Of a stretch of DNA of 64,000 bases, positions 21,688 through 40,112 are shown piece after piece; position 1 is the first letter of the stretch; the number at the start of each line of letters is the position of its first letter. The notes beneath the pieces were generated by a model that saw only the letters and a list, made by a program, of their open reading frames with translations, was not told where the DNA came from and ran no database searches. The position numbers were made by a program, and so were the translations under genes. The stretch covers positions 27,854 to 91,853 of the forward strand of contig JAPULZ010000056.1 of NCBI GenBank assembly GCA_027294455.1. The letters run 5' to 3'. The DNA is from Gemmatimonadota bacterium. Lineage in GTDB: Bacteria > Gemmatimonadota > Gemmatimonadetes > Gemmatimonadales > GWC2-71-9.

Positions 21688-23871
21688 TCAGGCGGCCTTC
21701 ACAGCCTCCAGTTTCGCCATGACGGGCGGTAAGGGACTTGCGGAGGAGGAATGATCGAACGAAAGCACGTCCATCGGGCATACATCGATGCAGATACCAC
21801 ACTGAATGCATCCGGAGTTCCGGTTGTCGAACGACGCACCGCTCTTGGCAAACGCCATCACGTCCACCCCGACCTGGCAATACCGGCTGCACATGGTGCA
21901 CGAGATGCAGTGCTCGTTCGACTTGATGGTGAGACGACCGTACCAACGGGCCAAGACTTGATTCCAAGCAGCGAGCGGGCACCAGTACCGGCACCACACC
22001 TTGCCACCAAAAAAGGGATACAGCGCGATGGGAATCACGGCGATGAGCCAGAATTCGACCATATACTGGTACGACTGCATCCAGATGTTGTCGGCGCGGG
22101 TCTTGAACATCCCCACCGTCACGACCGTGGCAATCGTAGCTGCCACCAACACCACGGCTCCCTGGAATTCCCAAGAGCGGCTTCGCTTGCCCTTCGGTGC
22201 CAGATGCCGCCAGCGATCACCCAGGGTTTCCGCGAGCCCACCGCAGCCACAAATCCACGTGCAGAAGCGTTTGCCGTGGTTGCGACTCGCCCAGGGGATG
22301 GCGATGAACGTCAAGAAGAGACCGGCGCCGATGAACCCGTACACGATGAATTTCGGATCCGACGTGCTGAACCAGTTGAACGTGCTGATGGACAGGGGCC
22401 AAGGTTGCGAGAGGCCCCACGCTCGCCAGGAGTACTGGACGGTCAGGGCCTGCACCGCGACCACGTTGGCAATGAGAAAGAACCCAACCTGGAAGCTCGT
22501 CAGCGAGATAAAGCGCCACTTCTGGTACCGGTTGTCGCGGGCAATCGAACTCCACCGATAAAACGCCTGGTAGCCGAGCGCGGCGAACGCCACCGTGTAC
22601 AGCAAGCTGTAGAGGTACCCCTGCTGAAACCACAGCGTCCCGTAGATGTCTTGCCGCGCTTGTTCGTCAAAGATCCAGGAGAACGGCAGAAACGCGATAC
22701 CGAACAACCGCTGCACGACCCCGCTGAAACTCTCGAGAGAAAAGAAGTGGTTGAACGGCCAGGCGTAGGGCAACTCAGGAAATTTCTTGAGCCCGTACAG
22801 GGAATACGTAAAGAGGAATGCGAGGCCCAAATAGACCCACCGCCGTACATACCAATCACCTTCGAGCCTGATCCCGATGCGCCGAAAGAAGGGAAGCGGT
22901 AGCTCCGCGCCGATCATCTCGAACACCACGTCGTTCGGAACCGTCTGCTCCCGCCCGGCGGCGTCGCGAAACGTGACCGACGCCGTCTCGACCCGTTCCA
23001 GCGTACTCGAAAGATGCAAGTCGAGCCGCCCGGCAGCTTGCTCCGCCAGCAGGGCAGTGACGTTGCGCTTGCGCGGAAACGTCAACGCCGCGTCGACGGT
23101 CACCATGGTGACCTCGTTGGTCTTGCAGAGCGCCAGCGCCGCTTCGGCCGCAACGTCCCCGCCGCCGTAGATGAAAATGCGCTTGCCGGTGTACCGATCC
23201 GGATCGGCGAGGTGATGCTTGATCCGGTCGGCGTGTTCCGCCTCGCCCGTCGCACCGGCTTTGCGCGGGTTGCCCGCCATCCCGACGGCCAAAATGACGC
23301 GGCGGGCCCGATACGCACGGCGAGCGGATTCCACCACGAAGTGTCCGTCTCGCTGCTGGATATCGGTGACGTTCTCGTGTTCGTGCACCGCGAGGCCGGC
23401 ATCGCTGACCTGCCGCCGCCACCGTTCGAGGAGCTCCTCGCGAGTGCACTCTTCGAACCACATGGTACTGCGGTTGGGGACGCGGTCGGGCTCAGCGAAG
23501 AGGATCTTGCCCTTATACATATTGTGCACGGTCGTGGCGATCCGATCCGAGTCCAGGACCAGGTATCGCATGCCCAGCTCGTGCGCTCGCATGGCCGCGC
23601 CGAGGCCCGAGGAGCCGGCACCCACGACCACGACATCCAACAACTCCGGATCGCTCTCCACCGGCGGGCCCAGCTCGGCCCGGAGCCGATTCGCGAGATC
23701 GACCCCTTCGTTGAGTCCCAGCTTGATGAGAGGGGTGCCGCCGATATCCCCCGTCAGATAGAGGCCCGAGATCGAGCTTTCCCGGTTCTCATCGACTTCC
23801 GGCAGCACAGGGTACGAGGGATCCGGCTGCTTCGGGCCGAAGAGCGTACGAATTTGGGTCGAGAAAGTCAC
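21688..23871 (-). CDS. Fusion protein: FAD/NAD(P)-binding pyridine-nucleotide oxidoreductase domain + polytopic NapH/CcoG-like polyferredoxin membrane domain
   Basis: GxGxxG motifs VVVVGAGSSGLGAA and IFIYGGGDVAAEAA are followed by multiple TM helices. Cys motifs follow: CTWICGCGG, CRYWCPLAAW, CISCTMCSRYCQ and CIQCGICIDVCP (4Fe-4S type). The start is GTG 23871, the first start codon after an in-frame TAG, so the N-terminus is uncertain. Confidence 0.8.
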   Translation of the reverse strand: MTFSTQIRTLFGPKQPDPSYPVLPEVDENRESSISGLYLTGDIGGTPLIKLGLNEGVDLANRLRAELGPPVESDPELLDVVVVGAGSSGLGAAMRAHELGMRYLVLDSDRIATTVHNMYKGKILFAEPDRVPNRSTMWFEECTREELLERWRRQVSDAGLAVHEHENVTDIQQRDGHFVVESARRAYRARRVILAVGMAGNPRKAGATGEAEHADRIKHHLADPDRYTGKRIFIYGGGDVAAEAALALCKTNEVTMVTVDAALTFPRKRNVTALLAEQAAGRLDLHLSSTLERVETASVTFRDAAGREQTVPNDVVFEMIGAELPLPFFRRIGIRLEGDWYVRRWVYLGLAFLFTYSLYGLKKFPELPYAWPFNHFFSLESFSGVVQRLFGIAFLPFSWIFDEQARQDIYGTLWFQQGYLYSLLYTVAFAALGYQAFYRWSSIARDNRYQKWRFISLTSFQVGFFLIANVVAVQALTVQYSWRAWGLSQPWPLSISTFNWFSTSDPKFIVYGFIGAGLFLTFIAIPWASRNHGKRFCTWICGCGGLAETLGDRWRHLAPKGKRSRSWEFQGAVVLVAATIATVVTVGMFKTRADNIWMQSYQYMVEFWLIAVIPIALYPFFGGKVWCRYWCPLAAWNQVLARWYGRLTIKSNEHCISCTMCSRYCQVGVDVMAFAKSGASFDNRNSGCIQCGICIDVCPMDVLSFDHSSSASPLPPVMAKLEAVKAA

Positions 23872-24113
23872 CGCAAATCCTCTGTATGTCCCGGGCGAAA
23901 AGATTCCCTACGGGAACGGAGGAAACGCGCCGCGAGTTCCCCCGGGGCGCAGCTCCGTAGCCCGATGTCGGCCCTGGCAGGAAATCTAGTTGTGCGGGGT
24001 GAGCATGCTCCAGTATTCGGCGAGGTCGAATCCAACCGGATCGACATGGTCGTACCGCTCCCGCACGAAGTGGCGCCAAACGCCCAATTCCCGCCGACGG
24101 GCGGGACAGGACC

Positions 24114-24311
24114 CTATCCCCTACCCGGCGGGGGCGGGCCAAAGACGGGATCGGGCATGTTCATGCCCCCACCACCCCCCATGTCCATCATGGAGGGCAT
24201 GCCCTGACCCGCGAGAGCGGGCGGCGCGGCGAGCGAAACCATGACCGGAGCGGTGTAGACGGCCCCCGTCGCTAACTTCTTCAAGAACTCGCGCCGATCG
24301 TGGGATCTCAT
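24114..24311 (-). CDS. Small Tat-signal peptide/protein (65 aa) with a Met/Gly/Pro-rich mature region ending in GRG
   Basis: MRSHDRREFLKKLATGAVYTAPVMVSLAAPPALA carries the twin-arginine motif RREFLK, an h-region and an AxA site. The mature part is GQGMPSMMDMGGGGGMNMPDPVFGPPPPGRG. AGGTGA lies a few nt upstream of ATG 24311, which is 8 nt after the methyltransferase stop. Confidence 0.6.
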   Translation of the reverse strand: MRSHDRREFLKKLATGAVYTAPVMVSLAAPPALAGQGMPSMMDMGGGGGMNMPDPVFGPPPPGRG

Positions 24312-24318
24312 CACTCAC

Positions 24319-25479
24319 CTACACCTTGTTGGCAATGGACGTCTCGACCCTGCCCTGGAGAGCCGCGAGGACCTCTCGTTGCGCTAGCTCGGAACTCAAC
24401 TCCGGGTGGGCTCCGCGCAGCGCTTCGGCAATTTCGCCCATGGTCCTCGCACCGTCGGTGAGGGACAACACGTCGCACTCGAGCGCGCCGTGCCGTCCGA
24501 GCCTCGGAACCGCATCGGGGCTCAAGCCTGCGAGGTCGTGCAACGATGCCGGGGCCGCGGCGAACTCGTTGCCCTGTACCGTGCGTCCACCGGCTTCCAA
24601 GCTCCAAGCAAGCCAGCCAGGCGTTCCGTCGTCTGATGCGCTAGATCCGACGCTCGCACGGAGCACTTCTCCGACTCCCACGGACAGGGGCGGATCGGCC
24701 ATCAGCACCGTATTGCCCCAGGATCCCGGCTCGGCGCCCGGCGCGTTAGAAAGCCATTCCCCGGGAGCGAGCTCCAGGTCGAACCACAGCGCCAATCCGT
24801 CGATGGAGCCTGCCCGGTCCATGCGCCATTCCGCCGTACCGTGCAACGCCGCCCTCGGATCGGGAGCCCGATCGAACCGCACCTCCCCGAGGGCAACCGG
24901 GTCCGCCACCAGATCGTCGCTGACCATGTCCACCGACACGGGCGCGTTGACCGCGTACTCCCGGCTGGGACTCCAATCGATCCCGTATACCACTTCGGTG
25001 TCGAGATCCGCGAACGACAATACGGCCCGGCGCACGCGATCGGACCGGATGGGCGCCAGCATGAGCCGGGCCCGACACGGGACGGTACGCACTTCCCCCA
25101 CGGCATAATCTCGCAACAACGTCTCGAGCAAGCGAACATTGCCGGCGTCGAGGAGGCGCGGGGCGAAATCCTCGAAGATGACGACGTCACACCGCTCGGG
25201 TATCGTCAGTCTCGGAATCCATCCCCTCAGGAACTCTATGCGGTCGGCGTACCCGTTCACCACCCCGATGGCTTTTGCCACGTGCACGATCGGTGTCCCG
25301 TCCACGGCCCAGACGCGGCCGGCCCCCGCATCGGCGGCGAAGAACGCAAACGTCCCCAGTCCCGTCCCGACCTCCAACACCCGATCGCCGGGCCGTACCA
25401 CGGCGTGAATGGCGCGGCGAAAAGCCTCGATGCGCTTCTCTTGGGCCAACATGCCCCGGTAGTGCTGCATCATGCTCAT
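24319..25479 (-). CDS. PRMT-like class I SAM methyltransferase with a C-terminal PqqD/RRE-like domain
   Basis: Motif I is VLEVGTGLGTFAFFAADAGAGRVWAVD. There is an acidic loop VVIFEDF…LLD and a beta-barrel-like region with SWGNTVL, which resembles the PRMT THW loop. The C-terminal about 70 aa (VLSLTDGARTMGEIAEAL…VLAALQ) resembles PqqD. ATG 25479 overlaps the PqqD stop (ATGA). Confidence 0.75.
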   Translation of the reverse strand: MSMMQHYRGMLAQEKRIEAFRRAIHAVVRPGDRVLEVGTGLGTFAFFAADAGAGRVWAVDGTPIVHVAKAIGVVNGYADRIEFLRGWIPRLTIPERCDVVIFEDFAPRLLDAGNVRLLETLLRDYAVGEVRTVPCRARLMLAPIRSDRVRRAVLSFADLDTEVVYGIDWSPSREYAVNAPVSVDMVSDDLVADPVALGEVRFDRAPDPRAALHGTAEWRMDRAGSIDGLALWFDLELAPGEWLSNAPGAEPGSWGNTVLMADPPLSVGVGEVLRASVGSSASDDGTPGWLAWSLEAGGRTVQGNEFAAAPASLHDLAGLSPDAVPRLGRHGALECDVLSLTDGARTMGEIAEALRGAHPELSSELAQREVLAALQGRVETSIANKV

Positions 25480-25757
25480 TGCAGCAGTCCCGCCCGGGCA
25501 AATTCGGAGACGACGCCCTCCACGTCCTGCTCGAGGGTATCGGCCGGCGCCGACCCGGTGAATGCCTCACGCACCTCCCCGGCGATCTCGCCCAGGGTGA
25601 GGCTGCCGCTGCAATGCGCCCAGACCAGGGAGGCCGTGAGGTTCAGCACGTGCATCTTGTTGTCACGGGGATCGAAGAGCACCCACTCCTCATCGAGCTG
25701 ACGAAACACGACGTCGCCCCGGGCTTTGGGGCGTTGCGGCATCTTGGGCGTCGCCAT
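25476..25757 (-). CDS. PqqD-family protein (RiPP recognition element-like)
   Basis: VVFRQLDEEWVLFDPRDNKMHVLNLTASLVWAHCSGSLTLGEIAGEV…DVEGVVSEFARAGLL matches the PqqD pattern. I start at ATG 25757; ATG 25742 is also possible. Confidence 0.8.
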   Translation of the reverse strand: MATPKMPQRPKARGDVVFRQLDEEWVLFDPRDNKMHVLNLTASLVWAHCSGSLTLGEIAGEVREAFTGSAPADTLEQDVEGVVSEFARAGLLQ

Positions 25758-25812
25758 CGTCGTAAGATGGGCACTCACGGATTGGGCGGCAACGATGACA
25801 ACCGGCCGGGCC

Positions 25813-26916
25813 TCACCGGCGGCGGAGCTTGCCGGCGACGCTCGACGCGTGCCGCCCCCAGGCATGCAGCCGCGAGCCGGCGTCGGGCCATCGCCAGGCG
25901 AGGTGCGAGCGTGGAGGCACCAGTACGTCGGCCAGGAGCTTCCAGAGCCCGCTCCAGCGGTCGATGACGCCCAAACGCCGGCGTATCCGCCCCGGGGTGA
26001 TCGTCACGGCCTCCTCCGACGGGGTGGCGAGGGCCAACCGCACGAGGCCGCGTAGGTCCGATGCACCGATCTGGCTCGCACGCCAGTCCCACTCCGGCTG
26101 GATGCCTGGGGTCTGCGGCAAGTCAAACTCCCGGGAGACGATTCCCCCGAGCACGCGAACGGCCCGCAGCGCTCCCACCTCCCGCGCCACGGCTTCCACC
26201 TTGGCGCCGGCGCCGGTCGAAAGCCGCTGCCACAGCAGGGTGAAATCGATGATGCCCTTGAGATGGAGCATGTCGTGATGTGCCACGTGATGGGCGAGCA
26301 ACACCAGGTGGCACTCGTCGCTCGGAGCGATGAGCGCCTCGCCGCCGAGTGAGTCCCACACGACCTTCGGTATGGCCACCGTCGCACGGGGCAGCAATCT
26401 GTCCAACGGCTCCACCGCCCAGTGAAGATCGACGGTCACCGTTTCGATGTCGGTGCCCCCGGCCTCCCGGTGCAAGACGCAGGCACCGCGCAGGTCGGGA
26501 GGGCCCGGTTGTTCGTCCTCGGGCGCCGGTCGATACCCCAGCGCGGCCAAGGCCGCCAGGGCGGCCTCGCGAGCCGGCGGCGTCACATGAACATCGATGT
26601 CCTGGAGGTCTCGGTCGCCCACCTGGTAGACCGGCCCGAGGAGCGCGATGCCCTTGTAAAAAAAATGCGGGACGTCGGCCTGTTGGAACGCCGCTCCCAG
26701 CTCGAGGGCTGCGTCCCGCAGGATCGCCGCTTCGAGCCCTCGGTAGACCCGCCGCTCACGTACCCCGTCCGCCTCGAGGTCGAGGCAGCGGGCGAGGTAT
26801 CCCTCGAACCCGAAGTCTCTGGCAAGCTCGAGCGCCCGGGTGGGTCCCTTGCGCCCGACCTCGGCGGCCACATCGTCCAACGCGGACAGCAGGGTAGCCG
26901 CGACCGGCTCGGTCAT
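25813..26916 (-). CDS. Uncharacterised nucleotidyltransferase family protein (NTP_transf_5-like)
   Basis: DIDVHVTPP…ALAALGY, VDLHWAV and LLAHHVAHHDMLHLKGIIDF are blocks typical of PF14907-type proteins. ATG 26916 overlaps the upstream stop (ATGA). Confidence 0.75.
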   Translation of the reverse strand: MTEPVAATLLSALDDVAAEVGRKGPTRALELARDFGFEGYLARCLDLEADGVRERRVYRGLEAAILRDAALELGAAFQQADVPHFFYKGIALLGPVYQVGDRDLQDIDVHVTPPAREAALAALAALGYRPAPEDEQPGPPDLRGACVLHREAGGTDIETVTVDLHWAVEPLDRLLPRATVAIPKVVWDSLGGEALIAPSDECHLVLLAHHVAHHDMLHLKGIIDFTLLWQRLSTGAGAKVEAVAREVGALRAVRVLGGIVSREFDLPQTPGIQPEWDWRASQIGASDLRGLVRLALATPSEEAVTITPGRIRRRLGVIDRWSGLWKLLADVLVPPRSHLAWRWPDAGSRLHAWGRHASSVAGKLRRR

Positions 26917-27776
26917 GAGGACGCCACTTCGGAAAGGACGCGGACGGCCTCGTCCGCCCCGCCGAACCGAACCTCGACGGCGCCCGCCTTGTTCATCAAA
27001 TCCGCGAGACGTGAAAACGCGTCGGCTTTCTCGAGGCCGGTCTCGAAGCAACTGTGTACCAGAAGGCTCAGTCCATCGGCGGAGCTCATCGCTTTGACGC
27101 TCAATCCCTCGCCGGCGACGAATCTCACAAGCGCCACTACCTTCACCGGGGCCGGCTCGGCCCATCCCCCGGCCTGCGCGGGATCGAACCACGCCTCCTC
27201 CGACGCAGCACCCCAAAACGCCGTACCCGCAGGATCCACACCGAACCGGCGGAGCAGATCCGGATCCGACTTGAACAGCCGCTTGAAGGGCGCGGCGATG
27301 CCGTCATCGCCGATCAGCACCAGATCGTCGCCGAACGCCGGCAACCCGCTGAGACTGCCATGGGTGGCGAGGCTCGATTTCCCGGCGCCCGAAGGTCCGA
27401 GGACGATCACCGCTCCGGCATCGGCCGCCCACCCCGAAGCGTGAAGTTGCACCGAGTTGGCGCAGCCTTCGAGAAATACCTCGGTGAGGCAGTACTCGCA
27501 GTCGTCAACGAACGCGTCGAATGTGGCACAGAAGACGGGTTCGGGCCGGGAGGGCGTCTTGATCGACCACCCCCCGTCGTTGCACTCCACCCGTAGCGTC
27601 ACGCCCTCGCCATCTCGTGGGCCCGCCGTCGAGACCACCGCGTAAGCCGGAAACATGCTGCGTACCGCTTCACGGGTCGCAGGATCCGGCACCTCCACTC
27701 GGTGGCGCACGCCCATGACGTCGAACTCGATCGCCGTTAAACCGTTGTTATTCAACATGTTAGGTAGCACGGGCAC
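26913..27776 (-). CDS. HPr(Ser) kinase C-terminal-domain-like P-loop protein
   Basis: VIVLGPSGAGKSSLATHG…FGDDLVLI parallels the HprK/P block G.SG.GKSE.AL.L…G..LV.DD.V. Confidence 0.75.
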   Translation of the reverse strand: MPVLPNMLNNNGLTAIEFDVMGVRHRVEVPDPATREAVRSMFPAYAVVSTAGPRDGEGVTLRVECNDGGWSIKTPSRPEPVFCATFDAFVDDCEYCLTEVFLEGCANSVQLHASGWAADAGAVIVLGPSGAGKSSLATHGSLSGLPAFGDDLVLIGDDGIAAPFKRLFKSDPDLLRRFGVDPAGTAFWGAASEEAWFDPAQAGGWAEPAPVKVVALVRFVAGEGLSVKAMSSADGLSLLVHSCFETGLEKADAFSRLADLMNKAGAVEVRFGGADEAVRVLSEVASS

Positions 27777-27843
27777 AGGGACCTAGATCCAGCGAGGAAG
27801 TCGCCGCAACGCTCGCGCACACTCGCGCGTCTGTATGTACATG

Positions 27844-27868
27844 GGAGGCGCGGAAGCCGCGCGCCTCC
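27844..27868. other. GC hairpin in the intergenic region upstream of the HprK-like cassette
   Basis: ggaggcgcg-gaagccg-cgcgcctcc (9-bp stem). There is no flanking T-tract. It could terminate the upstream small gene or act on the cassette promoter region. Confidence 0.3.
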
Positions 27869-27981
27869 GACTTTCGCGGCAATTGGGCGTCTTACCGCTC
27901 GGTAGGAACCTCGCCGGAGGGGACGAGGCGGGACCATGCTAGCCCGGCCCAATCTGCCGCGATTGGGTAAGACCCACCCCA

Positions 27982-28251
27982 TCAATCCGCAGGTCCTCTA
28001 CCTCCCGACGCGCGCCCATCGGTCAGGAGCCGTTCGGCGAAATCGAGTCGTTCCTGTACCTCGGTGAGCTGCGTCCGCGTTTCGTTGAGGTCTTCGCGCA
28101 GGGAATCGACGACGGATTCGAGGTGCGATTCTCCCCCCCGGGCCTCGAGCTCCCGCTTCCGCAATGAGAACCGGAGAATCATCCCCAGCGCCACGACGGC
28201 CCCTCCCACCCCAAATATCACGCTGATGATCTGTGCTTCGAACGGCCCCAT
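27982..28251 (-). CDS. Small membrane protein with one TM helix and a coiled-coil tail (89 aa)
   Basis: MGPFEAQIISVIFGVGGAVVALGMIL is a TM helix, followed by a charged helical region. AGGAGA lies 7 nt upstream of ATG 28251. Confidence 0.5.
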   Translation of the reverse strand: MGPFEAQIISVIFGVGGAVVALGMILRFSLRKRELEARGGESHLESVVDSLREDLNETRTQLTEVQERLDFAERLLTDGRASGGRGPAD

Positions 28252-28311
28252 GACGTCTCTCCTCACTCCGGCGGCGCCCTGCGGCGGCCGAACATTCGCT
28301 CGCTCGGGGAG

Positions 28312-28384
28312 TGACCGGGGTGGGTCTCGAACCCACGACCTACGGATTAAAAGTCCGTTGCTCTGCCAGCTGAGCTACCCGGTC
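28312..28384 (-). tRNA. tRNA-Lys (anticodon TTT)
   Basis: The reverse complement folds as acceptor gaccggg/cccggtc, D-arm agctcagctggcagagc, anticodon loop cTTTTAa and T-arm gtgggttcgagacccac. Confidence 0.9.
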
Positions 28385-28540
28385 GGCCAAAAAAAACATC
28401 GCTAGAGGAGGGTGGATACACAAGCACATTTTCATAGGGGAAAATCGCCCAACAAAAGCTTGTTCTCCCCGAAGAAACACTTACTTTGGTGTCCGATTGG
28501 GGCTGGTCATGCTACAGAAACTTCTTTTCTCGAGGGGGCA

Positions 28541-29086
28541 ATGGCTGCAAAACGAAGAAAAAAAGCCAAGAGGAAGGTGACGAAGCGCAAGGCCACCAAG
28601 CGCAAGGGCACGAAGCGCAAGGCTACCAAGCGCAAAGCCACCAAGCGCAAGGCAACGAAGAAGAAGAAGGCCACCAAGCGCAAGGCAACGAAGAAGAAGA
28701 AGGCCACCAAGCGGAAGGCCAAGAAGAAAAAAGCCACCAAGCGCAAGGCCACCAAGCGCAAACCCGCCAAAAAGAAGAAAGCGACCAAGCGCAAGGCGAC
28801 CAAGCGCAAAGCCGCCAAGAAGAAAAAGACCAAGCGCAAGCCGAACGCGGCGTTCATGAGGCCGTTGCAGCCGGATGCCGCGCTCTCACTGGTGGTGGGC
28901 AGCAAGCCGTTGCCGCGAACGGAGGTCACCAAGAAGCTTTGGCAATACATTCGCAAACACGGCCTGCAGGACAACGTAGACCGCCGCATGATCAATGCGG
29001 ACGCAAACTTGAAGGCCGTCTTCAGCGGCAAATCTCAAGTGAGCATGTTCGAAATGACGAAGCTGGTGAACTACCACATGAAGTAA
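28541..29086 (+). CDS. SWIB/MDM2-domain protein with an N-terminal lysine-rich histone-H1-like repeat region
   Basis: About 100 aa of (K/R)KATKRK repeats are followed by LPRTEVTKKLWQYIRKHGLQD…INAD..LK.VF…V.MFEM.KLV, a SWIB domain. I start at ATG 28541 (MAAKRRKK…). Confidence 0.85.
   Translation: MAAKRRKKAKRKVTKRKATKRKGTKRKATKRKATKRKATKKKKATKRKATKKKKATKRKAKKKKATKRKATKRKPAKKKKATKRKATKRKAAKKKKTKRKPNAAFMRPLQPDAALSLVVGSKPLPRTEVTKKLWQYIRKHGLQDNVDRRMINADANLKAVFSGKSQVSMFEMTKLVNYHMK
28550..28840 (+). repeat. In-frame tandem coding repeat (about 15-nt gccaccaagcgcaag units, including a 33-nt duplication)
   Basis: aagcgcaaggccaccaag-type units recur many times. The unit ggcaacgaagaagaagaaggccaccaagcg[c/g]aa occurs twice back to back. 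Confidence 0.8.
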
Positions 29087-36443: not shown

Positions 36444-37637
36444 TCATGGGTCGCGTTCGACGACGCGAGGCGGATCATCCCAGCCCGCCCACCATCGCGG
36501 GGCATCGATCACCAACACCCCCGGCCGGTCACCGACCGGGGCTTGCCTCACCGCGCGCTCACGGCCGCGGGCCGCCGATGCGGCCCATTCGCGCCCGAGC
36601 ACGGTGGCGAACCGGCGCGACGCCTGGGGCGTGTCCCATACCGACCACCAGACGAGGGCGTGCGAGTCCTCGACCTTGAACACGCCGTAGCGGTCGCCGC
36701 CCCAATCCCGGGCGGTTGCCGTCGCCGTCGACTCGCTGCCCGTAGCCGCCGTCACCAGGATCCGGGTATCGAACTCGCCGAGCACGTCGTCGTGCACGAG
36801 GTTCTCCGTGGTGGTGAAGCGGAGGGTCACCGGCTCGTCGCCCGCGAGGTACCGGTCGGGCCGCAGGATCTGCTCGGTGGACCGGGGCAGCAGGTCCCCA
36901 TAGGGGACTTGACCGGGAAACTCGCGCCCGAACCACCGCACGAAGTCAGCACCACCGAGGTACGGGAAGATCAACCCCTCGCGGAGCACGAGTGGCGCGG
37001 AGCTGAAGATCGGGTGGAGGGCCTGCTGGGCGCGGACCGACCGGCGGTACTCCTGCCAGAAGTCGGGGAGCGCCCCGAAGTCCTGATCGGGCATGAGGGC
37101 CATCAGCGAGGCGAGAATGCCCTGCCCTTCCATCACCGCCTGCGCGGCCGTTTGGCGGTCGTTGTCGCCGCGGGTTCGCAGAATGGAATCCAAGGGCATG
37201 TACTGCGCCTGGAGCGCGTGCACGAGCTCGTGGGCGACGATCAAGCGCACTTGAAACTCGTCGGCGCCCGAGACCACGAAGAGCGAATCGGTGAGCGGAT
37301 CGTAAAACCCGACGATTTGTTCGGTGTACAGGTCGAGCATGAGCTTGACGAGATCGAGGGAATCGGGGATGAGCCCAAACAAACGGTAGGCCAACGAGGT
37401 GCGTTCGATTTCTTCCGGCGGCAGCTCGGTTTCGAACTTGTCGAGGAGATACCGATAGACCTGGGCGCTATCGCGGACGGCGACGTTCGGTGGGTACTTG
37501 AAATCGAGGCCGACCGCCCGCTCCACTCCGGGCGCCAATTCCGCTGCAAGCACCTGCAATCGGTCCTGCCACTGGTCCCCTTGCGCGCGGCAGGCCAGCG
37601 TCGTCGCGGCAACGATGGTCAGTGCGAGAATTCTCAT
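36444..37637 (-). CDS. Secreted putative zinc metalloprotease (HExxH)
   Basis: Signal/lipoprotein-like N-terminus MRILALTIVAATTLAC. The motif VAHELVHALQ is present. The family is not identified. Confidence 0.5.
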   Translation of the reverse strand: MRILALTIVAATTLACRAQGDQWQDRLQVLAAELAPGVERAVGLDFKYPPNVAVRDSAQVYRYLLDKFETELPPEEIERTSLAYRLFGLIPDSLDLVKLMLDLYTEQIVGFYDPLTDSLFVVSGADEFQVRLIVAHELVHALQAQYMPLDSILRTRGDNDRQTAAQAVMEGQGILASLMALMPDQDFGALPDFWQEYRRSVRAQQALHPIFSSAPLVLREGLIFPYLGGADFVRWFGREFPGQVPYGDLLPRSTEQILRPDRYLAGDEPVTLRFTTTENLVHDDVLGEFDTRILVTAATGSESTATATARDWGGDRYGVFKVEDSHALVWWSVWDTPQASRRFATVLGREWAASAARGRERAVRQAPVGDRPGVLVIDAPRWWAGWDDPPRVVERDP

Positions 37638-37710
37638 GGCTCAAGATACACCGGTTGGAAGCGAAGTTCCCCAATCTACGGGAGCGCATTCCGCACCGGT
37701 GTATCAGCCG

Positions 37711-38493
37711 TCACCGCGCTCGGCGCAACCGAATGCTCCCGTTTACCGTACTCACGTCGAGGCGGGTGCCGCCCTCGCCGATCCGACCCTGGAGCGTCCG
37801 CCGGCTGAACCGGCCGCTCACGGTGATGGGAAGCGCGCTGTCGATGCTCCCGTTCACGGTGCTGGCGTGCAGGTCGACGTTGCTGTCCTCGGGCAAGTCG
37901 AGCGTGATGTTGCCATTGACCGTCTCAAACCGCACATCGCCCGACGTCGAACCGATCGACGCGCGAATAGACCCGTTGATGGTCGTGGCCACGGCCCGTT
38001 GCGTCGTCTTTACCTCGACGTCGCCGTTGACGGTGGCGGTCTCTACGTCGCTTGCGAGCCCGATCGCTTCGACGTCGCCGTTGACGGTGCGGCCCACGAA
38101 CCGCACACCGGCCGGCACGCTCACCGTGAAGTGCACGCGCGTGTCGTTGTTGCGCGTGTTCATACGGCCACCCGACCCATGCACGCACTCGTTCGGCCGT
38201 CCACTCGACGGGTACACCGCGCAGATGGTGATCCCGTCACCGTGTTCGACGACTACGATGTCGACCGCGTCCGGATCGCTCCGGCGGCCCCGCTTGATGG
38301 CCGTGACGACGACCTCGCTTCCTGACGTGAACGCGGCGACGACATCGCCGTTGACGCCCTTGATCTCGATTGCGTCTCCTTGCGCGATGCGACCCCGCCA
38401 TTCGAAGTCCTGCGCCGCCAGCTGGGTCGCGCCGATCGCTGCGGAAAACGCCAAGACCAGCGGCAGGCGCATGCACACTGGATGCTGCGTCAT
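37711..38493 (-). CDS. DUF4097-domain (putative beta-helical adhesin-like) protein
   Basis: VNGD/VNGS/VNGNI strands recur periodically (VNGDVVAAF, TVNGDVEV, TINGSIRA, TVNGNITL, STVNGSI). A signal peptide is present. I start at ATG 38493; 38472 is an alternative. Confidence 0.7.
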   Translation of the reverse strand: MTQHPVCMRLPLVLAFSAAIGATQLAAQDFEWRGRIAQGDAIEIKGVNGDVVAAFTSGSEVVVTAIKRGRRSDPDAVDIVVVEHGDGITICAVYPSSGRPNECVHGSGGRMNTRNNDTRVHFTVSVPAGVRFVGRTVNGDVEAIGLASDVETATVNGDVEVKTTQRAVATTINGSIRASIGSTSGDVRFETVNGNITLDLPEDSNVDLHASTVNGSIDSALPITVSGRFSRRTLQGRIGEGGTRLDVSTVNGSIRLRRAR

Positions 38494-38500
38494 GATTGCC

Positions 38501-39364
38501 TCATCGCAGACGACGGAGAAAAATGTCCCCGTCAAAAGTTTCCATTCGCAACACCGCCCCGCCATCACCCAACGTGAAGTTGAATCGATATCGCTGCGAC
38601 CCGCGAAGGATCACCGGGAAGCTCGTCTCGAACTCGCCCTCGAACGTCGCCACGCTCACGCTGGCGTTCACCCCGGCCGGAACCCAAACCGTCACGTCAC
38701 CGTCGTGCGTGCCGAAGCGGTACCGGCCGCCATCGTGAATCGGCCCCGAAAACGTCACGTCGCCGTCTACGGTGTTGGCCGTGATCTGCCGCGCGTCGAC
38801 GTTGTCCAGCTCGATGTCGCCGTCGATCGATTCCGCCGTCACTTCACCGGACACGTTGCGGATCCACACGTTGCCACCCGTGGAGGTGGCGTGGATCCGC
38901 CCACGCGCATCTTCGATACGAACGTCGTCATCCAGGGATTGCACGGAGACGAAGCCGGCTCCGCCACGCACAAGCACGGCGCCCTCCACTGTCTCTACCG
39001 ACACGTCGCCCGCGGTTCCGATCACGCTCACGGCGACTTCCACGCCACTGAGATCCAGGTCGAGGTAGGGCGGTACTGTGATCGCGAAATCGACATCCGC
39101 ATCGTCGTCGATATCGTCCTCGAATCCCCGCGCCACCACCCGTCGCACCCGCAACACCGCACCGGAGCGCTCCACGTCGATCCGGAAGCCCCGGGGACGC
39201 CGCACGATGATGCGTACGGCATCGCGCTGCCAGACCGTTACGCGAATCTCCCCGGTCTGGTTTCGCAGATCGAGGCGCATACCATCTTCGACGGCGATGG
39301 TCGTGTCTGTCGCTTGAAACAGGACCGAAGCGACGAGGGCTCCGGCCGCGAACGTGCTGATCAT
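38501..39364 (-). CDS. DUF4097-domain (putative beta-helical adhesin-like) protein
   Basis: Periodic G.V.V/DGDI/DGDV strand repeats (GGNVWI, IDGDIEL, TVDGDVTF, HDGDVTV, FDGDIFL). N-terminal signal or anchor. Confidence 0.7.
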   Translation of the reverse strand: MISTFAAGALVASVLFQATDTTIAVEDGMRLDLRNQTGEIRVTVWQRDAVRIIVRRPRGFRIDVERSGAVLRVRRVVARGFEDDIDDDADVDFAITVPPYLDLDLSGVEVAVSVIGTAGDVSVETVEGAVLVRGGAGFVSVQSLDDDVRIEDARGRIHATSTGGNVWIRNVSGEVTAESIDGDIELDNVDARQITANTVDGDVTFSGPIHDGGRYRFGTHDGDVTVWVPAGVNASVSVATFEGEFETSFPVILRGSQRYRFNFTLGDGGAVLRMETFDGDIFLRRLR

Positions 39365-39398
39365 GAAATACCTAAACTTTCTGGCCTGTCACTTCGCG

Positions 39399-40112
39399 CT
39401 ACAGCGCGCTGGAGATCGCGGTCACACCTTGCAGTAACGTCAACTTGTGTAGCATGGCCCGCTCGAGGTGCCCCCGCAGGTAGTCGCTCTCGGGATCGGC
39501 CGCTAACGCTCGCAGCGAACGCTCGATCGCCCGGTCGATGATCGCCAGGTTGTCTTCGACGATCCGGACGGTTGCCGGATCCAGGATTTCCCGCTCCCGC
39601 TCAAATACCGTCGTCAGGTCGGCCACCGCCTGTTCCAACCTGATGGCCCCGACCGACACGAACGACGCCTCGGCGACCGGCACGTCAGTAGCCGTGATGC
39701 CGTCACCGGCGATCGGCCCGTCGAGCGGCGATGCCGGGCCTCGCAACACCATTGCGCCACCTCCCGACAACAGCACCAGGGCGATGGCGGCGGCGAGGAG
39801 CTGCGGCACCGACACCGACAGCCGACCGGTGGACCACCACCGCCTGACGTGCAACATGGTGACCGCGTTCTCCGTGTCCGGCGCCCTGGCCCCTATTTGC
39901 TTGGCGATCCCCTCCCAAATCCGCTGCACCTGTGGCGGGACCTTGTCGTCCAGCGCCCGCGCCCGCATCACGACGCGACGAAGACCCTCGAGGGCTGCCG
40001 CCGATTCGGCGTCTTGGGCCAGACGCGCCTCCACGAGCGCCCGCTCGGCCGGTGTCATCTCGCCGTCGATGTAATCCGAGAGTCGATCCATCCACTTGTC
40101 GCTCATCGTCAC
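39399..40112 (-). CDS. Anti-sigma factor (zf-HC2-like N-terminus, single TM)
   Basis: LSDYIDGEMTPAERALVEARL is typical of anti-sigma N-domains. A central TM helix LLAAAIALVLLSGGGAMVL is present. The gene lies 2 nt downstream of the ECF sigma gene. Confidence 0.7.
   Translation of the reverse strand: MTMSDKWMDRLSDYIDGEMTPAERALVEARLAQDAESAAALEGLRRVVMRARALDDKVPPQVQRIWEGIAKQIGARAPDTENAVTMLHVRRWWSTGRLSVSVPQLLAAAIALVLLSGGGAMVLRGPASPLDGPIAGDGITATDVPVAEASFVSVGAIRLEQAVADLTTVFEREREILDPATVRIVEDNLAIIDRAIERSLRALAADPESDYLRGHLERAMLHKLTLLQGVTAISSAL

Follow-up and report, generated by a model that had tools for sequence, protein, structure and literature searches.

Which product would come out of an operon that places an HPr-kinase-like P-loop kinase, a PF14907 (NTP_transf_5) nucleotidyltransferase-fold protein, a stand-alone PqqD-family recognition element of the kind used for peptides that ribosomes make and that are modified after translation (RiPPs), and a homolog of the protein arginine methyltransferases (PRMTs) next to a gene for a precursor-like peptide of only 65 residues? 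Such a cassette, five consecutive minus-strand open reading frames (ORFs) that we call A-B-C-D-E in their order, occupies positions 24114-27776 of a 64,000-nucleotide stretch of DNA (the window) from a Gemmatimonadota bacterium (assembly GCA_027294455.1, contig JAPULZ010000056.1, positions 27,854-91,853 of the forward strand). A preliminary description of this DNA had proposed a peptide-tailoring pathway that fits no known RiPP class. The first part of that proposal is supported here by the conserved co-localisation of the genes across phyla. The second is outdated, since the core of RiPP recognition element (RRE), HprK-like kinase and NTP transferase matches that of the Linear Polyphosphorylated Peptides (LPPs), which are made by lppA-K-B-S-D-N clusters of Bacillota (Popov et al., Nat Commun 2026, PMC13381572). 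We think it probable that the cassette is an LPP-like tailoring operon for a ribosomal peptide, which would be phosphorylated, methylated and exported by the twin-arginine translocation (Tat) system.

The five-gene operon is real. Gene A (26913-27776, 287 amino acids) overlaps the start of gene B (25813-26916, 367 amino acids) in an ATGA at 26913-26916, a gap of 55 nt (25758-25812) separates B from gene C (25476-25757, 93 amino acids), and a second ATGA (25476-25479) joins the stop of C to the start of gene D (24319-25479, 386 amino acids). Gene E (24114-24311 when read from an ATG, or up to 24314 from a GTG, giving 65 or 66 amino acids) follows D after 7 nt or 4 nt, respectively. Both overlaps were read directly at the junctions, and the ORFs and their tight packing are as first described, save that the gap before the small ORF had been given as 8 nt, a trivial difference. 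Gene E has a GC content of 0.64, 0.55 and 0.79 at the three codon positions (GC1/GC2/GC3), which is the pattern of the neighbouring genes and not that of the overlapping alternative frame, and its 65-residue product is a called gene in a public collection (P0137). A GC hairpin (24090-24105) without a T-run lies after the stop codon of E. Scanning 23600-28500 revealed no sigma-70-like promoter, and the sole terminator-like site was inside gene B; both scans gave fewer sites than shuffled controls and are uninformative. The GC content of the window is about 65%.

Profile searches bear out the four enzyme families first proposed for these proteins (HprK-like, PF14907, PqqD and PRMT-like). The GPSGAGKSS...GDDLV pattern reported for A is present in its translation, and in the family-model search its only match was TIGR04352 (HprK_rel_A), at 43.9 bits, below the 200-bit cutoff of that model; all 16 aligned members of the A family match the same model, with a best E-value of 3.2e-35. 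When a profile of these 16 members was run against the PDB, the top match was the HPr kinase/phosphatase 1ko7 (E 1e-6), followed by 1knx and 1jb1, and the alignment spans the catalytic His, the Walker A sequence GxSGxGKS and the DD motif. Among 45 homologs, residues H112, G130, G132, K133, G144 and D150 of A are invariant and D151 is kept in 43. B scores 77.6 bits against PF14907 (cutoff 31.2), and both Asp residues of its D106-x-D108 are invariant in 37 of 37 homologs; the analogous DxD is essential in PsmN, the PF14907-type protein of pseudomycoidin biosynthesis. C scores 51.6 bits against PF05402 (PqqD, cutoff 23.4) and D 36.6 bits against PF22528 (PRMT_C, cutoff 27).

With an alignment of the methyltransferase we scanned one genome per species and obtained 53 loci, which were searched by tblastn and with custom hidden Markov models (HMMs) of each family; the counts that follow cover the 43 loci from other genomes that had enough flanking DNA. 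A was detected in 41 of them, B in 36 and C in 42, and a homolog of E has its own gene in 38 and is part of a fusion with C in another 3 (in L047, initially scored as peptide-less, the peptide gene lies directly after D). All components are present in 33 of the 43 loci, so that the co-localisation is conserved across phyla. Most loci belong to Gemmatimonadota and have the order A-B-C-D-E, and the closest organism-labelled homologs all come from Gemmatimonadota metagenome-assembled genomes (MAGs). The gene order is C-B-A-D-E in Poribacteria and E-C-A-D-B in Nitrospinota, and the same set, also rearranged, is found in Tectomicrobia, Acidobacteriota and one Nitrospiraceae MAG. Two of the rearranged loci, L040 and L045, carry the peptide gene on the opposite strand, beside a divergently oriented kinase gene.

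The product of gene E, MRSHDRREFLKKLATGAVYTAPVMVSLAAPPALAGQG-MPSMMDMGGGGGMNMPDPVFGPPPPGRG, combines an N-terminus of the Tat type with an embedded motif for RRE binding and a variable core, rich in Met, Gly and Pro, that ends in PPPPGRG. Its family is small, with 57 proteins among 5.8 billion, and the source-named members are confined to the phyla that bear the cassette. Among 27 aligned peptides just two residues are invariant, the first Arg (R7) and the Pro of the YxxP motif (P23), and the second Arg (R8) and the Tyr (Y20) are nearly so. When 45 peptides are considered, RR (or RK) is present in all of them, in the context S/T-R-R-x-F-L-K; the window peptide has DRREFLKK, with RREFLKK (24276-24296, minus strand) at residues 7-13 of the 66-residue reading. 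All 45 likewise have [Y/F]xxPx[VILMF], placed 13 residues past RR in 42, and the corresponding [Y/F]xxPx[V/I/L/M] motif of the window peptide is YTAPVM (residues 20-25; 24240-24257, minus strand). A motif of this type, [Y/W]xxPx[L/V/I/F/A], is the RRE-binding determinant of lasso and LPP leaders (PMC13381572). A site of small residues (GQG, AQA or AxA) follows 25-30 residues after RR, with SS-x-HK next to it in most Gemmatimonadota peptides, and beyond it the cores are highly variable, rich in Pro, Gly, Ser, Gln, Met or His, and often end in APW..PPPG. A Ser or Thr is found 17-22 residues past the Tyr in 40 of the 45 peptides; in LppA the distance is 18 (Y(-16) to S(+3)).

The residues with which an RRE of this kind holds its leader have counterparts in C. 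A profile of C run against the PDB had the lasso RRE TbiB1 (5v1u) as its top match, followed by 9x8z_B (E 3.4e-6), TfuB1 and PqqD. Chain 9x8z_B is LppB, as seen from a constant residue offset of 18 (V35, C39, N33 and D70, N51/D88 being N33/D70), and N39 and D78 of C align with N33 and D70 of LppB. In the crystal structure of LppB with its leader, D70 forms a hydrogen bond with the Tyr and N33 holds the kink at the Pro in place; mutation of either residue weakens or abolishes leader binding (PMC13381572). N39 is invariant in the C family, and the position of D78 is Asp in 10 of 14 aligned sequences, by a manual count from the alignment. Because the relatives of E all carry the twin-arginine and the RRE-binding motif, and because C keeps this Asn and Asp, E is the likely substrate of the cassette.

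The kinship of C with lasso proteins also brings up another explanation, that the cassette does the tailoring in an ordinary lasso pathway whose cyclase (lasso protein C) and leader protease (B2) are encoded elsewhere. The best structural and sequence relatives of our protein C are lasso B1 proteins; it matches the lasso, PQQ and ScmD subfamily models about equally, and NF033530 (lasso_PqqD) is its top NCBIfam match. HprK-like kinases, like PF14907 proteins, typically serve in lasso tailoring, a precedent cited in the preliminary description and confirmed by the literature, and the leader of E carries a lasso-type YxxP motif. We nevertheless consider this explanation very improbable. Pfam scans of about 35 of the 43 probable genes of the window, including every ORF above 340 amino acids, matched no lasso cyclase, LanM or YcaO, as had been stated for the window before, and all scanned genes were housekeeping or unassigned; no Asn-synthase-like or transglutaminase-like gene was among them, and neither was seen in the Nitrospinota loci annotated with Pfam or in the flanking regions of L038, L042, L047, L048 and L051, a survey of neighbourhoods and not of whole genomes. 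In Gemmatimonadota the cassette stands at one syntenic housekeeping position that has no room for more biosynthetic genes. The peptides begin with a twin-arginine segment and conserve neither a Thr at position -2 nor an acidic residue at core position 7-9, and LPPs show the same set of enzymes working without a cyclase.

D is a true PRMT homolog. Its family profile found PRMT6 in the PDB (hmmsearch) at E 2e-41 over positions 3-286, and its AlphaFold2 (AF2) model, with a predicted local distance difference test score (pLDDT) of 87, is composed of a Rossmann domain, a beta-barrel and a tail of helices at the C-terminus; a Foldseek search with this model returned PRMT6, PRMT1, Hmt1 and CARM1 at target-normalised TM-scores of about 0.71-0.82. 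A database search gave 198 relatives of D with E <= 1e-5, the source-named ones being from Gemmatimonadota. The Arg that holds the carboxylate of S-adenosylmethionine (SAM) is conserved as R16, and E103, which aligns with the first Glu of the PRMT double-E loop, is invariant. The second Glu of this loop (LLHESM in PRMT6) aligns with A112 of D and variable residues in its relatives, the adjacent D111 is not conserved, and a nearly invariant Arg, R108, sits in the loop. The THW loop, 'ATHWKQ' in PRMT6, aligns with 'GSWGH/N', so that only its Trp (W254) is retained, and from our reading of the alignment D starts too late to have the N-terminal YFxxY helix. Arginine is doubtful as the methyl acceptor of D, judging from the sequences, because the second double-E Glu is gone and some cores have no Arg. 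We rejected a core Arg as the general acceptor: several cores (L018, L020) contain none, and the C-terminal PW..PPPG motif is missing outside Gemmatimonadota. The only universally conserved Arg residues in the peptides are the twin arginines.

The last 70 residues of D had been described as looking again like PqqD. This holds for the helical half of such a domain and not for a complete second RRE. The tail module (approximately residues 325-377; 24349-24507, minus strand) is modelled as three helices (329-340, 347-357 and 363-374) that resemble alpha1-alpha3 of PqqD, and no beta-sheet is assigned to it; hhalign aligned it to the PqqD family of the cassette with 79.5% probability and E 1.5e-5 over 41 columns, in the helical part only. 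One homolog of D (P0100) has a precomputed PF05402 match. In the model, therefore, the tail appears to be only a partial, three-helix PqqD-like remnant, without the beta-sheet through which true RREs bind their leaders.

A physical connection between the RRE and the leader was found in Acidobacteriota, where the PqqD domain continues in frame into a segment RRxWLRxLG...LP.V....AP..AxA and a core with about six Cys (ORFs L039:9415-9939, L041:9469-9990 and L046:9501-10010). This architecture is shared by 22 protein clusters (P0178-P0199), in which the RR, the Pro and the AxA Ala are invariant. In the AF2 model of P0178 the RRE part matches TbiB1 and TfuB1 and the Cys-rich core is confidently folded. 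The fusion ties this clade of RREs to the Tat-like type of leader, and constitutes independent evidence for the segment that the RRE recognises. RRE-precursor fusions of this type may be undescribed. Their Cys-rich cores suggest, on composition, an oxidising and extracytoplasmic destination, and the Cys-, Met- and His-rich cores of the family as a whole fit such a destination.

Is the leader a true Tat signal? TIGR01409, the Tat model (cutoff 16.7 bits), scores relatives of E from Nitrospinota at 24.2, from Tectomicrobia at 17.2 and from Poribacteria at 16.5 bits, and NCBI names some members of the family 'twin-arginine translocation signal domain-containing protein'; a scan of E itself against Pfam and NCBIfam gave marginal matches to Tat models only. 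RRxFLK could instead be part of a leader recognised by the RRE or the enzymes that merely resembles a Tat signal, with the peptide matured and exported by unlinked dedicated machinery or kept in the cytoplasm. Gemmatimonadota peptides stay below the Tat-model cutoffs, their hydrophobic stretch contains Lys, Tyr and Pro, many of them have no clean AxA, and in the Acidobacteriota fusions the RR is some 95 residues from the N-terminus, unlike a classical signal. An internal Tat-type segment could, however, act as a signal anchor with its N-terminus in and its C-terminus out, as in Tat substrates of the Rieske type. The presence of RR or RK in each of the 45 peptides within the full S/T-R-R-x-F-L-K context, the small-residue sites 25-30 residues downstream of it, and the relatives from Nitrospinota and Tectomicrobia that pass TIGR01409 all speak for a signal, as do the paired Cys of the Cys-rich cores, which fit an oxidising compartment. 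No dedicated peptidase or exporter gene is linked to the cassette in any locus that was examined. We regard a leader with recognition functions alone as quite unlikely, and retain Tat export in the reading that we prefer.

From the gene set, its linkage, the catalytic residues, the leader motifs and the RRE contacts that match them, we infer the following course for the LPP-like operon. The conserved N-terminal part of E, about 35 residues, would be the leader, and C would bind its YxxPxV segment in the manner of LppB and the lasso B1 proteins. C would then present E to A for phosphorylation of a Ser or Thr just past the leader/core junction. The analogy here is with LppK, the LPP kinase, which adds several phosphates to Ser3 of the core (PMC13381572); the candidate acceptor lies in GQG-SS-x-HK in most relatives and would be S41 in the window peptide. 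B probably decorates the phosphate, for instance with a hexose as in pseudomycoidin, where PsmK phosphorylates the peptide and PsmN is required for the addition of hexoses onto the phosphate. Nucleotidylation, which had been suggested as one of the modifications, is an unlikely chemistry, since PsmN is the sole PF14907 protein studied and is needed for this hexose addition. D would add one or more methyl groups, its helical PqqD-like tail probably docking it onto the complex of RRE and leader.

The tailored peptide would then leave the cytoplasm by means of its own leader, in which the twin-arginine motif, a mildly hydrophobic stretch and the small-residue site would serve for Tat export and cleavage by signal peptidase. 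The two general systems would thus replace the SipW-like peptidase and the ABC exporter of the Bacillota LPP clusters. We detected no SipW-like signal peptidase (LppS type) in the operon, in the Pfam-scanned flanks or in the annotated loci of other phyla, which are neighbourhoods and not whole genomes, and no MsbA-like ABC exporter (LppD type) adjacent to the cassette, the sole ABC-type matches being UvrA-like in the window and molybdate-type importers in Nitrospinota. Our proposal would account for this, because Tat and signal peptidase would serve in their place. Moreover, since the RRE site lies inside the hydrophobic region of the signal, binding of the RRE could hold export until tailoring is done.

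Several observations weigh against this reading. The window peptide reaches 15.6 bits with TIGR01409, under the cutoff of 16.7, and most of its Gemmatimonadota relatives match the Tat model weakly or not at all. About 14% of core residues are Ser or Thr, which makes the spacing between Tyr and Ser no more than suggestive. The matches of A and C to the models of the HPr-rel-A system, TIGR04352 and TIGR04353, fall below the curated cutoffs (43.9 versus 200 bits and 28.2 versus 35 bits, respectively). In the AF2 model of the P0178 fusion the leader is made of helices of low to moderate confidence, with the pLDDT falling to 52-62, and adds no strand to the sheet of the RRE, so that the model speaks neither for nor against docking. 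The chemistry of B is uncertain, activity of LppN having been undetectable in the LPP study (PMC13381572). Three Gemmatimonadota loci (L018, L020 and L023) consist of C-D-E only, with no kinase or nucleotidyltransferase gene nearby in about 9-10 kb of upstream DNA in L018 and L023 and only 1.2 kb in L020; either phosphorylation is not obligatory everywhere or its genes are elsewhere in these genomes. Lastly, RRE binding of the peptide, its export by Tat and the acceptors of phosphate and methyl are all parts of the scheme that we infer.

The minimal C-D-E loci suggest, for their part, that methylation is the core step of the pathway or that the other enzymes are unlinked. Their peptides retain SS-x-HK. 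Other loci have peculiarities of their own. In L015 (10001-13820) the methyltransferase match is in two pieces about 2.5 kb apart with two unrelated ORFs between them, and an insertion or an assembly join may have disrupted the gene. The Tectomicrobia locus L050 (8717-8947 and 10361-10678) has two kinase paralogs and two Tat-type peptides, one rich in His and Gly and the other in Met and Gly; a separate PqqD was not detected by HMM in this locus, and its methyltransferase-containing ORF can be read up to 451 amino acids, longer than usual. Just upstream of the PqqD gene in the Nitrospiraceae MAG (L048:2775-3104) is an ORF with long MGWGWGW... and MGMGMGMG... dipeptide repeats, broken by a masked run of N, and similar MGMG-rich cores are seen in peptides of L049, L050 and L031.

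The surroundings of the cassette differ between phyla. In Nitrospinota, an unclassified low-GC genome (L047) and Poribacteria it lies beside genes for Wza-like, Wzc-like, CpsB, Wzy-like and GT4 proteins; the loci with polysaccharide genes are L047, L051, L054-L057 and L038, and the neighbours are Poly_export/SLBB (Wza-like), Wzz/GNVR/AAA_31 (Wzc-like), CpsB/CapC and Wzy_C-TPR proteins and a GT4-GGDEF fusion. No polysaccharide genes were found beside the cassette in the Gemmatimonadota loci. Such neighbourhoods could mean that A, B and D act on an exopolysaccharide or an envelope protein, that E is a plain small periplasmic protein exported by Tat, for example a Met/His-rich metal-binding one, and that C is a signal-peptide chaperone only. 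Met-rich and His-rich cores do occur in the family, and they resemble periplasmic copper-binding sequences; there are also weak matches to a small 'formate dehydrogenase region TAT target' family, and LPP clusters themselves are found in capsule loci. Yet no rearrangement, in about six phyla, has separated the peptide gene from the enzyme genes, the conserved leader and hypervariable core of the peptide form the pattern of a RiPP, and E carries the exact motif bound by RREs of the clade of C. The homologous kinases of LPP and lasso systems phosphorylate the RRE-bound peptide itself, and the Gemmatimonadota cassettes have no adjoining polysaccharide genes. Tailoring of E itself remains the reading we favour, and we find this alternative unlikely, although less so than the lasso pathway discussed above.

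The LPP-like reading can be taken one step further, in a form that we put forward tentatively and hold to be possible but rather less than probable. The cassette would then represent the first case in which the leader of a tailored ribosomal peptide doubles as a Tat signal, with the RRE acting as a Tat proofreading chaperone that holds the precursor until it has been phosphorylated, perhaps phospho-glycosylated, and methylated by the PRMT homolog; the general Tat and signal peptidase machinery would then export the product to the periplasm or envelope, for example as a peptide that binds metal or as one that bears a phospho-sugar and is linked to the assembly of polysaccharide.

In the window, the cassette is surrounded by housekeeping genes, tRNA-Lys, a SWIB-domain gene, rnhB, rplS, trmD and ffh, with rimM and rpsP between them identified from their translations only, and a gene for a LysM/SLT transglycosylase on the other side. 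The SWIB-domain gene and three downstream genes flank the cassette on the same sides in many Gemmatimonadota loci, and this fixed synteny argues for vertical inheritance. The SWIB-domain gene itself (28412-29086, plus strand) encodes a Lys-rich N-terminus of KRKATKRKATKKKK repeats, histone H1-like, fused to a SWIB/MDM2 domain, and it is the SWIB part that is conserved upstream of the cassette in many of these loci; between it and the upstream region of the cassette lies the tRNA-Lys gene (TTT anticodon; 28311-28384, minus strand). A small ORF upstream of A (27982-28266) has no homolog in any related locus and was excluded. Directly downstream of the cassette lies gene F (21688-23871, minus strand), which encodes a 727-residue protein with a YpdA/thioredoxin-reductase-like FAD/NAD(P) disulfide oxidoreductase part and a NapH-like polytopic 4Fe-4S membrane domain; we rejected it as a member of the cassette, the same position being empty or occupied by unrelated genes in other genomes. 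Farther away, two ORFs (36444-37637, minus strand, and 37622-39541, plus strand) of 397 and 639 amino acids have a coding-like GC3 and no Pfam match (E <= 1e-5).

If these proposals are correct, the core of RRE, HprK-like kinase and PF14907 protein would extend from Bacillota to Gemmatimonadota and at least five other phyla, and it would have a second logistic solution, in which a Tat-type leader uses general export and cleavage instead of a dedicated peptidase and an ABC pump. It would also place a bacterial homolog of the PRMTs in a concrete setting, with a defined ribosomal peptide as its substrate; this is relevant to the proposal that the arginine methyltransferases of eukaryotes arose from peptide methylases of bacteria. 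Taken with the neighbouring polysaccharide genes in other phyla, the fixed and syntenic place of the cassette in Gemmatimonadota points to a function in the cell envelope rather than to an antibiotic.

How does the cassette compare with the systems already known? The LPP clusters are the closest. Like them, the cassette combines a discrete RRE of the PqqD type with an HprK-like kinase and an NTP transferase of the PF14907 type and has no macrolactam cyclase; its precursors have a conserved N-terminal YxxPxV leader followed by a hypervariable C-terminal part, with a Ser a few residues past the leader/core junction, and its RRE keeps the Asn/Asp pair that fixes Tyr and Pro. The polysaccharide neighbourhoods outside Gemmatimonadota parallel, in addition, the capsule-locus context of LPP clusters. 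LPP precursors carry YxxPxVLxHQxIxFETxxS (PMC13381572), and the rest of this consensus (LxHQxIxFETxxS) is absent from the cassette peptides, whose leader starts instead with a twin-arginine motif. The cassette further adds the PRMT-homologous methyltransferase with its PqqD-like helical tail. LPP clusters, which sit in capsule loci, were reported as restricted to Bacillota (PMC13381572), whereas the cassette is found in Gemmatimonadota and five other phyla, and in Gemmatimonadota it keeps a fixed syntenic position among housekeeping genes and is not patchy or transfer-prone. From these sequence comparisons the cassette is most likely a new variant of LPP-like peptide tailoring and not a wholly novel class.

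With paeninodin and pseudomycoidin (PadeK/PsmK and PsmN) it shares a kinase of the HprK family that has a P-loop and a DD metal site, a protein of the PF14907 type in which DxD is essential, an RRE of the B1 type and a leader of the YxxP type. It differs from them in having neither lasso cyclase nor B2 protease in its loci, in a likely phospho-acceptor near the N-terminus of the core as opposed to their C-terminal Ser, and in its Tat-type leader and methyltransferase. A TIGRFAMs cassette of an HprK-related kinase and a PqqD protein, mentioned in the preliminary description, does exist: it is the HPr-rel-A system of TIGR04352 (HprK_rel_A) and TIGR04353 (PqqD_rel_X, 'HPr-rel-A system PqqD family peptide chaperone'). 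The former is the best curated family for A; the latter is among the top matches of C, at 28.2 bits and below its 35-bit cutoff. We know of no methyltransferase or Tat-type precursor described by these models.

D is homologous to the type I PRMTs (PRMT6, PRMT1/Hmt1 and CARM1) over the SAM-binding Rossmann domain and the beta-barrel, and departs from them in the missing second double-E Glu, in (G)SW at the place of THW, in R108 and in the three-helix PqqD-like tail. PRMT-like enzymes tied to RREs had been supposed to be new in bacteria. This may be so only for the link with an RRE and an HprK-like kinase, unreported in the literature we found; Aravind and colleagues had previously pointed out PRMT-like peptide methylases in secondary-metabolite operons of bacteria, but those sit with nonribosomal peptide synthetase and dioxygenase genes, while D sits with an RRE, a kinase and a ribosomal precursor. 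Our literature search on HprK-related kinases, on PRMT together with RRE and on twin-arginine RiPP leaders returned nothing that describes this cassette.

The last comparison concerns export. TorD, DmsD and NapD are proofreading chaperones that bind Tat signals, and C would resemble them in being small, cytoplasmic, encoded beside a Tat-type substrate and predicted to bind within the signal. Its fold, in contrast, is the winged helix of PqqD and its site a YxxP motif in the hydrophobic region, and the maturation awaited would be peptide tailoring and not insertion of a cofactor. Against all these systems, what appears to be new is a PRMT homolog with an RRE remnant within such a cassette, a leader that would be both Tat-type and RRE-binding, the reliance on no dedicated peptidase or exporter, the fusion of RRE and precursor in one protein, and the occurrence of this toolkit well beyond Bacillota.

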